NCBI GenBank assembly: GCA_001563335.1
Contig: LRSL01000055.1
Span: 13,030-77,029 of the forward strand
DNA length: 64,000 bases
Direction of reading: 5' to 3'
DNA from: Candidatus Thorarchaeota archaeon SMTZ1-45
GTDB taxonomy: Archaea; Asgardarchaeota; Thorarchaeia; Thorarchaeales; Thorarchaeaceae
A program made the position numbers and the translations under genes. Shown here piece after piece: positions 25,798-60,663 of this stretch. Every line of letters begins with the position of its first letter. The stretch's first letter is position 1. Under the pieces are notes generated by a model. It worked only from the letters and a program-made list of their open reading frames with translations. It did no database searches and was not told the origin of the DNA.

Positions 25798-26082
25798 ATG
25801 TCAAAGAGTGACGTTCTAAAAGGCCGTAGAGGCGTTGTCACAAGTTATCGTAGGGGAAAGCACCTACAGCATCCAAATCAAGTGATTCTGCTATTCAATG
25901 AGATCAAGACCAGATCCGAGGCTTCAACACTTGTTGGTCGTAGGGTGAAGTGGATCTCGTCTGAGGAGAAGGAGTTCCTAGGCAAGGTGCTTGGTCCACA
26001 TGGAAACAGTGGGGCAGTTCGTGCTAAATTCCGGACAAATCTACCCGGGCAAGCTATTGGAACCCCAGTTGTCCTATTATAG
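25798..26082 (+). CDS. rpl35ae: 50S ribosomal protein eL33 (L35Ae)
   Basis: SYRRGKH, GKVLGPHGNSGAVRAKF..NLPGQAIG. Confidence 0.96.
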   Translation: MSKSDVLKGRRGVVTSYRRGKHLQHPNQVILLFNEIKTRSEASTLVGRRVKWISSEEKEFLGKVLGPHGNSGAVRAKFRTNLPGQAIGTPVVLL

Positions 26083-26123
26083 ACAATCACGAACTTTTAT
26101 CTAGCTAGCAGAGGATGCCTAAT

Positions 26124-26197
26124 TGGCTCCGATGATGCAACTGGCTATCTGAGGGCAGAGATGCCCAGCGACGATTCATAGTTAGACTGAGGAGCCA
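26124..26197 (+). ncRNA. C/D-box methylation guide sRNA
   Basis: 7-bp terminal stem TGGCTCC/GGAGCCA; box C ATGATGc (26132); box D' CTGA (26149); internal hairpin GGGCA-GAGA-TGCCC; box C' gCGACGA (26168); box D CTGA (26187); two 11-12 nt guides. Confidence 0.8.
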
Positions 26198-26238
26198 CAT
26201 CTTGAACACATTTGTCTGCTTATGGTTGGAGAAATATT

Positions 26239-26817
26239 ATGCTTGAGTTGTTGCTGTATTTCACTGCATACTTTCTTGCAGGGCTCTCACTCAAGCTAGG
26301 AGATGACCTACTGGATGAGCTTGATAGGTCTCAACTGGCCATGATTCCTTTGTCTATTGCGGGACTTCTATTTGGCCTACTCATGACAATCTCAGAGTGG
26401 GACTTGGTTCTACTGACCAGCATAGTGATTGGTGTCTTAGTTTCAGGGAAAGTGAATAATCCCCAATTCATTGTGGGGTTTGTGTTAATCTTCGGAACTT
26501 TGCTAGTGGTTGGAGTTCCAGTTGTTACAGACTGGTTAGAGTGGATGACTTTACTCATCATTCTCTTCATGGCAGCAGTCCTTGATGAGAAAGGAAATGA
26601 TTGGGCAGATAAGGAGAAATCACCATTGGCCTTCAAAATGTTCGAGTATAGATTCGTGCTCAAGATAGTTGTGCTTGGCCTTGTGATACCTTGGCCAATG
26701 TTTCTTTTAGCAGCAATTGGACTTTGGATCTTTGATCTTGGGTATGAATCTGCTGGGTGGCTAATAAAAGGATTATCAAGCAAGAGTCTTGTAAGCAAGA
26801 CTACAACAGACATCTAG
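26239..26817 (+). CDS. Conserved archaeal multi-pass membrane protein
   Basis: KLGDDLLD, GKVNN, AAVLDEKGND, FEYRF, FDLGYE motifs; about six TM segments. Confidence 0.7.
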   Translation: MLELLLYFTAYFLAGLSLKLGDDLLDELDRSQLAMIPLSIAGLLFGLLMTISEWDLVLLTSIVIGVLVSGKVNNPQFIVGFVLIFGTLLVVGVPVVTDWLEWMTLLIILFMAAVLDEKGNDWADKEKSPLAFKMFEYRFVLKIVVLGLVIPWPMFLLAAIGLWIFDLGYESAGWLIKGLSSKSLVSKTTTDI

Positions 26818-59888: not shown

Positions 59889-59966
59889 TGGTGCCCCAGC
59901 CGGGATTTGAACCCGGGTCTTAGACTCGAAAGGCCTAGATGCTGGGCCGGGCTACACTACTGGGGC
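59889..59966 (-). tRNA. tRNA-Glu(TTC), CCA encoded, no intron
   Basis: Reverse complement GCCCCAG...TAGGC-CTTTCGA-GTCTA...GGTTCAAATCC...CTGGGGCACCA folds as a cloverleaf. Confidence 0.95.
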
Positions 59967-60586: not shown

Positions 60587-60663
60587 GGGCCCGTAGCTCA
60601 GCTTGGTAGAGCAGCAGGCTCATAACCTGTCGGTCGTGCGTTCAAATCGCGCCGGGCCCACCA
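60587..60663 (+). tRNA. tRNA with CAT anticodon, most likely tRNA-Ile2 (agmatidine-modified)
   Basis: GGGCCCG acceptor typical of archaeal Ile2 rather than iMet (A1-U72); GCAGG-CTCATAA-CCTGT; GTTCAAAT; CCA; TTTAATAT TATA box upstream. Confidence 0.9.

Follow-up and report, generated by a model that had tools for sequence, protein, structure and literature searches.

The box C/D small RNAs (sRNAs) of archaea are typically about 50–60 nt long, with a short K-loop between boxes D' and C'. In hyperthermophilic archaea, helix 69 of the large subunit (LSU) ribosomal RNA (rRNA) is a methylation hotspot, with dense predicted sites around the equivalent of Escherichia coli A1912, and predicted sites cluster at helix 69 in Pyrobaculum as well; exact methylation sites are mostly not conserved between archaea. 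About 45% of the Pyrobaculum sRNAs aim both of their guides within 100 nt of each other, and closely spaced dual-guide targets of this sort have been proposed to aid rRNA folding. Here we describe a 74-nt small RNA located at positions 26124–26197, forward strand, of a 64,000-nt stretch of Candidatus Thorarchaeota archaeon SMTZ1-45 (contig LRSL01000055.1, positions 13,030 to 77,029; hereafter the window), just downstream of the ribosomal protein gene rpl35Ae. It is very probably a true C/D-box guide RNA aimed at the helix 69 loop, and it is conserved in the Thorarchaeota and in other Asgard archaea of several families.

The window RNA resembles the archaeal box C/D sRNAs in its boxes C, D', C' and D, its terminal stem, and the 12-nt spacer between C' and D; it is likewise complementary to a conserved rRNA hotspot (helices 68–71), and its two guides, like those of many archaeal sRNAs, appear to be aimed at neighbouring rRNA segments. 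It differs from them in its length and in a covarying 5-bp hairpin between D' and C', and departs from the archaeal norm in having a degenerate C' box and a C-D' spacer of 10 nt. A C/D sRNA of Haloferax and Haloarcula for Gm1950 provides a second comparison, since it too belongs to mesophilic archaea with few guides, one of them aimed at helix 69, although its target lies in the helix 69 stem (the equivalent of E. coli 1909) and not at A1913 of the loop. Among eukaryotic guides, snR63 of yeast, U46 (SNORD46) of plants and human, and CD33 of Neurospora crassa share the nucleotide that is the predicted target of the window RNA. CD33 also uses its D guide, in a 13-bp duplex, but its gene is intronic whereas that of the window RNA is intergenic with a putative promoter of its own, and the window RNA, unlike the snR63/U46 group, carries a second conserved guide region.

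Elements of this kind are thus already known, both from the archaeal helix 69 hotspot and from the haloarchaeal guide for the helix 69 stem. We found no paper on Asgard C/D sRNAs in the literature searched, and relative to that literature this RNA family, its breadth among Asgard archaea, its constant predicted target at a eukaryotic methylation site, and its internal covarying hairpin appear to be new. Exact sites are reported to be poorly conserved among archaea, whereas the predicted target of this guide stays constant in several Asgard families; it is the A in the helix 69 loop that touches the decoding site and that both yeast and human methylate. The RNA thus offers a concrete case for asking if some eukaryotic rRNA modifications came from an archaeal ancestor, and its covariance model can be used to find the RNA in cultured Asgard strains.

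A conserved and covarying C/D-box RNA

The layout proposed for the window RNA by a first-pass annotation, made from the sequence alone, was a complete C-D'-C'-D order closed by a 7-bp terminal stem, with a hairpin between D' and C', lying 41 nt downstream of rpl35Ae on the same strand. Every part of it is in place (Table 1); a match to Pfam PF01247 identifies the upstream gene as rpl35Ae, and the position of its stop codon agrees with the 41-nt distance to the 5' strand of the stem. A single unpaired G lies between that strand and box C, and a single unpaired A between the hairpin and the C' box. Only 26 of 62 homologues can form the outermost pair of the terminal stem (T-A in the window), and the conserved stem is thus 6 bp long.

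The assignment to the C/D-box guide RNAs is supported both by the rarity of the layout and by its covariation. A strict scan of the whole 3.54 Mb genome for boxes C, D', C' and D with permitted spacers and a stem of 4 bp or more returned one site, that of the window RNA, and none in the reversed genome that served as control; a loose C/D scan gave 38 candidates in the real genome versus eight in the reversed one. Three of these 38, the window RNA included, have a D guide with at least nine Watson-Crick pairs to rRNA, and judged by such simple, non-exhaustive scans the genome seems to be poor in canonical C/D RNAs. The other two candidates with such a D guide lie in genome G000, on contigs C31 (734–838, reverse strand) and C47 (18213–18309, reverse strand), each with boxes C and D, a 5-bp stem and nine Watson-Crick pairs between its D guide and LSU rRNA.

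Alignment of 62 distinct homologues (alignment A1) shows compensatory changes, involving both sides of the pair, at nine of the 12 stem pairs, and none of 500 shuffles reaches the observed covariation; the real structure is paired in 90.6% of cells, versus 31–45% when the partners are slid. The core of the D guide, TCATAGTTA, is invariant in all 62 sequences, and the D' core GGCTA(T) is nearly so. Spacing is also well kept, with 12 nt between C' and D in every sequence and either 10 nt (40 sequences) or 11 nt (22 sequences) between C and D'.

Conservation is equally apparent at the level of the locus. A BLAST search with 121 nt against 61 related genomes found 30 loci, all in family f1 (families, genomes, contigs and loci are referred to by our own numbers, with prefixes f, G, C and L). 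Among 73 rpl35Ae loci in public genomes, 68 have the 9-mer TCATAGTTA downstream of the gene and on its strand, and in 64 of these it starts about 90–160 nt past rpl35Ae; in the other four (L050, L060, L069 and L108) it is displaced by a further 500–700 nt. Three of the five rpl35Ae loci without the 9-mer end too early to contain it. Two individual loci deserve mention. The copy at L037 (G024, contig C203) matches the 5' half of the RNA (stem, box C, D' guide and D' box) and then diverges fully, with no helix 69 guide, and may be truncated or rearranged, or reflect an assembly join. Genome G026 has two full-length rpl35Ae-sRNA loci in one bin (L049 and L057, on contigs C150 and C59), with 90% and 87% identity to the window, which suggests the presence of two strains and not a true duplication.

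The D guide and its predicted target in helix 69

Neither an LSU nor a small subunit (SSU) rRNA gene was found in the assembled genome to which the window belongs (87.7% complete), rRNA genes being commonly missing from binned genomes, and D-guide pairing was for this reason judged on the rRNA of relatives. Helix 69 reads GGGACUAACUAUGAGUCUC in all five same-genus LSU genes (G001, G009, G012, G014 and G017), and positions 2–12 of the D guide pair with ACUAACUAUGAG in 11 contiguous pairs, ten of them Watson-Crick and one G-U. In each of the four same-genus LSU genes scanned, helix 69 is the top site for the D guide, with the next best sites having 5–8 Watson-Crick pairs, and the same-genus rRNA scan found no SSU site close to the helix 69 match. 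The exact complement of the D guide occurs in the host genome at the guide itself only.

C/D guides direct methylation to the nucleotide paired with guide position five, counted upstream from box D; in the window RNA this partner is the second A of UAAC in the helix 69 loop, which precedes the U equivalent to E. coli 1915 by two nucleotides. The numbering between E. coli, yeast and Asgard rRNA is our own count, and it agrees with the landmark modifications in the cited passages. In the passages of PMC2794176 that bear on this loop, yeast pseudouridine 2258 is the equivalent of E. coli 1915, and Am2256 (snR63) is the loop methylation, conserved in human. Because that source equates the landmarks and the A sits two nucleotides before 1915, the predicted register is that of yeast Am2256 and E. 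coli A1913, as had been proposed at the outset for this guide, and the pairing extends over 11 positions of the same-genus LSU rRNA.

The match is retained throughout the family. With the same-genus helix 69 as a proxy for all, at least nine contiguous pairs form at the helix 69 site in all 62 homologues. Nine genomes contain both the RNA and an LSU gene of their own, and helix 69 is the top D-guide site in eight of them; in the ninth it comes second, level in Watson-Crick pairs with the first. G060 (family f18) shows a compensatory change between guide and target, with UAACUAUAA (containing UAUAA) in the rRNA loop and TTATAGTTA (containing TTATA) in the guide. Family f9 shares that A in the rRNA, but its guide keeps one mismatch opposite it and is left with eight Watson-Crick pairs.

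Several observations weigh against the interpretation of this RNA as a guide for helix 69. Box C ends in a C instead of an A, the C' box is degenerate (GCGACGA), and the C-D' spacer is 10 nt instead of 12. At this locus every Rfam family falls short of its gathering score, the best match being sR22 with 18.2 bits against a cut-off of 40. The pairing has been displayed on relatives' rRNA, as noted above, and among 1000 shuffled D guides 15 reach ten Watson-Crick pairs somewhere in LSU plus SSU rRNA; the D' guide of the window has no distinctive target at all, 421 of 1000 shuffles matching as well. The single D-guide match is thus only moderately rare when taken alone, and the weight comes from its conservation. 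Transfer RNAs (tRNAs) were also considered as targets and rejected: across the 26 tRNAs that aragorn identified, a set from which intron-containing tRNAs may be missing, neither guide makes more than six Watson-Crick pairs.

Helix 69 itself varies among the Asgard archaea. Loops reading UAUAA, UCUGA and UGUGA were seen, the sequence before AAGGTAGCC in the G048 LSU gene (L044) is not recognisable as helix 69, and the word AAGGTAGCCAAA was not found in the LSU part of the G038 gene (L040); none of these genomes gave a match to the covariance model described below. The G037 LSU gene (L173, approximately 2046–2838) is interrupted by roughly 800 extra nucleotides, possibly an intron, that immediately follow the 3' strand of helix 69 and lie between the predicted D-guide and D'-guide target segments; G037 is the sole genome of the same order outside the family.

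Distribution across Asgard lineages

The first-pass annotation had suggested examining related genomes for conservation of the boxes and stem, and this was done both with the 62 homologues and with a covariance model (R1). The model was built from Thorarchaeota only and applied with a threshold of E ≤ 0.01 and stricter filters, and its misses are not to be read as absences. It matches in 47 of the 151 genomes sampled from the phylum, namely in f1 (25 of 26 genomes), f2 (1/1), f5 (12/13), f18 (1/1), f17 (2/5) and f9 (2/25), with single weak matches in f14, f15 and f22; no match was found in the remaining families of the 151 sampled genomes. One weak match, L170, has no C' box and is doubtful.

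Twenty-three of the more distant matches were placed in a cross-family alignment (A2) fitted to the model. ATAGTTA adjoins box D in 21 of these 23, and the stems covary strongly, with compensatory changes at all five hairpin pairs, in an alignment that was itself fitted to the model.

The D' guide

The target of the D' guide is less apparent. The LSU site tentatively proposed for it at the outset, AUAGCUGGUU, did not survive comparison with relatives, as it does not lie within the LSU gene of any of the five same-genus loci; in the form AGCTGGTT it is absent from all five genes, with one match in G001 that falls in the flank outside the gene. A different LSU candidate, GUAGCCAAAUGC (E. coli 1930–1941, by our own count), includes GUAGCCA(AAU) and lies just 3' of helix 69, its first nucleotide being 19 nt beyond the U of UAAC in the loop. 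Contiguous D' pairs at this site number seven in the window, eight in the commonest variant, and nine or ten in eight of the 62 homologues. The D' guides of three other families map clearly to the same strand of their own LSU rRNA: that of f5 pairs with AAAUGCCUUGU (9–10 Watson-Crick pairs), that of f9 with CCUUGUCUAGU (nine), and that of f18 with CCUUGCCGG (eight), all at 27–30 nt past the helix 69 loop and with next best sites of 6–7 pairs. LSU helices 70/71 are preferred as the target for this reason, and it is more likely that the window D' guide pairs there, next to helix 69, albeit weakly in this lineage.

Two alternatives have to be considered. The longest match of the window D' guide is not in LSU rRNA but in SSU rRNA, at GUAGCCGGUU, where the G017 SSU gene offers ten contiguous pairs (eight Watson-Crick and two G-U), and where methylation of the first C of GCC would be predicted; 27 of the 62 homologues also reach ten contiguous pairs there when G-U pairs are counted, and the motif is present in the SSU genes of both G017 and G014. 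We nevertheless consider an SSU target improbable, as the match depends on two to three G-U pairs, a search of the G012 SSU gene did not find the motif, shuffled guides equal the D' match somewhere in rRNA at the high frequency noted above, and both the proximity of the two targets in many Pyrobaculum sRNAs and the better D' matches of the other Asgard families favour a site close to helix 69. A second possibility is that the D' half guides no methylation in present-day Thorarchaeota, being either an orphan or a helper that adds base pairs near helix 69. At GUAGCCAAAU, 51 of the 62 homologues have six to eight contiguous pairs and only the eight already mentioned have more; 20 have a degenerate D' box, the spacer from C to D' measures 10–11 nt and not 12, guide positions 8–12 vary without keeping complementarity, and orphans make up 28% of the Pyrobaculum guides. 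The near invariance of the GGCTA(T) core across the family implies selection on it, however, and the D' box is a canonical CTGA in the window and in 42 of the 62 homologues, and we consider loss of the guide function possible but less likely than not. Pairing at helices 70/71 remains the preferred reading, with a D' half that looks partly decayed in the Thorarchaeota, given its non-canonical box in those 20 homologues and the loss of complementarity at guide positions 8–12.

Comparison with the eukaryotic helix 70/71 cluster provides some context. The D' guides of the Asgard RNA family map to the same strand as the sites of yeast snR75 (Gm2288) and snR13 (Am2280/2281). Those of f9 and f18 (L159, L160 and L167) point at the helix 71 G that by our own count is yeast Gm2288, the snR75 site, and by that count both predicted targets of the RNA in f9 and f18 would coincide with eukaryotic methylation sites. 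In the lineage of the window, unlike at the snR75 and snR13 sites, the D' guide points at the equivalent of C1934, which to our knowledge is not a known eukaryotic 2'-O-methyl site. The eukaryotic helix 70/71 sites have guides of their own, separate from the helix 69 guide snR63.

Transcription and the link to rpl35Ae

The position of the RNA behind rpl35Ae had suggested co-transcription in the manner of a hosted snoRNA, but a promoter of its own now seems the better interpretation. A TATA-like word starts between -36 and -24 before the stem in 57 of the 62 homologous loci, and at exactly -29 in 48 of them, while only one of the 62 loci has such a word in a control slot placed 60 nt farther upstream; the five loci that lack the word in the slot have one a few nucleotides further upstream. 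In the window it is preceded by a B recognition element (BRE)-like motif. At L050 the gap between rpl35Ae and the RNA is about 600 nt and the BRE/TATA-like motif still precedes the RNA, and at L060, L069 and L108 other TATA-like words lie about 30 nt before the displaced copies. In family f5 the RNA lies between genes that resemble, by eye only, those of a flavin mononucleotide (FMN)-dependent isomerase and a membrane protease, with an A/T-rich box about 25 nt upstream.

Linkage to rpl35Ae is real, but among the loci examined it occurs only in f1, f2 and f18: the gene adjoins the RNA in 26 of 27 f1 and f2 loci and in one of 20 loci of other families (L167, f18). This linkage, together with the short same-strand distance in the window, is what speaks for an RNA that is trimmed from the 3' tail of the rpl35Ae mRNA and has no promoter, and most archaeal C/D sRNA genes are indeed described, in the part of a review that deals with them, as lacking promoters and being processed from longer transcripts. 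The fixed-distance motif, its movement with the RNA in displaced loci, and the unrelated neighbours of the RNA in f5 are difficult to accommodate in such a scheme, to which we give little credence. A motif at fixed distance that moves with the RNA argues instead for an independent promoter, and the RNA is most likely transcribed from its own BRE/TATA promoter situated between the rpl35Ae stop codon and the 5' stem. Read-through from rpl35Ae, if present, would in any case be ordinary for archaea. We also set aside the possibility that the RNA is a conserved 5' leader of the downstream open reading frame (ORF), as a homologue of that ORF follows the RNA in only 13 of the 73 rpl35Ae loci.

The question of descent from a common guide

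We judge it somewhat more probable that the positional match with eukaryotic Am2256/U46 is convergent than that it is inherited, helix 69 being hit by many unrelated guides. The description of helix 69 as a hotspot in hyperthermophiles and in Pyrobaculum, and the reported lack of conservation of exact sites between archaea, both favour convergence. The RNA also shows no similarity to snR63/SNORD46 beyond the generic boxes, in that a cmscan search of 26000–26320 at E ≤ 10 gave five Rfam matches (sR22, SNORD83, SNORD109A and two unrelated families), none of them SNORD46 or snR63; this test is a weak one, as it presumes that Rfam holds models for those two RNAs. Pointing the other way, the predicted target does not change from one Asgard family to another wherever the RNA is found, and the N. 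crassa counterpart also uses its D guide, though neither observation proves descent. Because similarity of the guides is forced by the target, and no similarity to a model was detected, common descent with snR63/U46 cannot be shown, and the window RNA is not filed under that family.

It seems unlikely to us, though worth stating, that the RNA is an Asgard-wide, vertically inherited dual guide for helices 69 and 70–71 and the direct ancestor of snR63/U46 and, through its D' half, of the snR75-type guides. Were this true, the archaeal ancestor of eukaryotes would already have possessed at least one of the ribose methylations of eukaryotic rRNA and the guide for it, and the long body with its internal stem, which is eukaryote-like in look, would represent an intermediate form.

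Protein machinery and proposed mechanism

The genome encodes the proteins expected of a C/D ribonucleoprotein. Genes for fibrillarin (PF01269, 290.7 bits) and Nop5 (PF01798, 219.7 bits) are adjacent on contig C26, and two genes of the L7Ae family (PF01248) lie on contig C24. By inspection, a terminal kink-turn is possible from the 7-bp stem, a 3-nt bulge (G-A-U), tandem G-A pairs, a U-U and a G-C pair, using G26134-A26190, A26135-G26189, U26136-U26188 and G26137-C26187, and a second is possible from the D' box, hairpin and C' box, with C-U replacing the usual U-U. A single-sequence minimum free energy fold (z of -1.6) pairs the two guides with each other and was not used.

We propose that, if expressed, the RNA would form one kink-turn from its terminal stem and boxes C and D, and a second from the D' box, the internal hairpin and the C' box, the hairpin serving as the canonical stem of the second. 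Both would be bound by L7Ae and then by Nop5 and fibrillarin. The 12-nt D guide would base-pair with the LSU helix 69 loop, and fibrillarin would 2'-O-methylate the second A of UAAC, the site modified at yeast Am2256 and by human U46/SNORD46. The D' guide would most likely hold the GUAGCCA strand just 3' of helix 69 (E. coli 1930–1936, helices 70/71), acting as a second anchor or folding aid, or possibly as a guide for the C1934 equivalent.

Organization of the locus

The component parts of the RNA and its upstream neighbourhood are listed in Table 1.

Table 1. Parts of the window RNA, its putative promoter and the adjacent upstream gene; positions are those of the window.
Feature	Position	Strand	Remarks
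rpl35Ae, upstream neighbour	25798-26082	+	Pfam PF01247 Ribosomal_L35Ae, E 2.8e-21; stop codon TAG at 26080-26082
Putative archaeal promoter, BRE-like ACGAAC then TATA-like TTTTATC	26089-26101	+	Ends 22 nt before the 5' stem; predicted from sequence
5' strand of terminal stem, TGGCTCC	26124-26130	+	Perfect 7-bp complement of 26191-26197; compensatory changes in 5/7 pairs (62 homologues)
Box C, ATGATGC	26132-26138	+	Six of seven positions of RUGAUGA; columns T13, G14 and A15 invariant (62 sequences)
D' guide, AACTGGCTAT	26139-26148	+	Core GGCTA(T) conserved in alignment A1
Box D', CTGA	26149-26152	+	CTGA in 42/62 homologues, degenerate in the other 20
Internal hairpin, GGGCA-GAGA-TGCCC	26153-26166	+	5 bp, between D' and C'; compensatory changes in 4/5 pairs (62 homologues)
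Box C', GCGACGA, degenerate	26168-26174	+	Homologues have canonical ATGATGA or ATGACGA in the same columns
D guide, TTCATAGTTAGA	26175-26186	+	12 nt; complementary to the LSU helix 69 loop
Box D, CTGA	26187-26190	+	CTGA in 51/62 homologues
3' strand of terminal stem, GGAGCCA	26191-26197	+	Pairs with 26124-26130

Downstream of the RNA, 26212–26817 on the forward strand encodes a predicted membrane protein of 201 aa with no Pfam family, and a GGAG lies 7 nt before an ATG at 26240. Genes for a deoxyhypusine synthase and a radical SAM protein surround the locus, along with two ORFs that match no family. Just upstream of the RNA, the segment at 26107–26118 (GCAGAGGATGCC) resembles part of the internal hairpin at 26155–26165 (GCAGAGATGCC); the upstream GGATGCCTAA is conserved in close relatives of the window locus, and the similarity may reflect a partial duplication or a signal for processing. 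In the whole window, Rfam gathering scores are exceeded only by two tRNA genes, at 59892–59966 on the reverse strand and at 60587–60660 on the forward strand.

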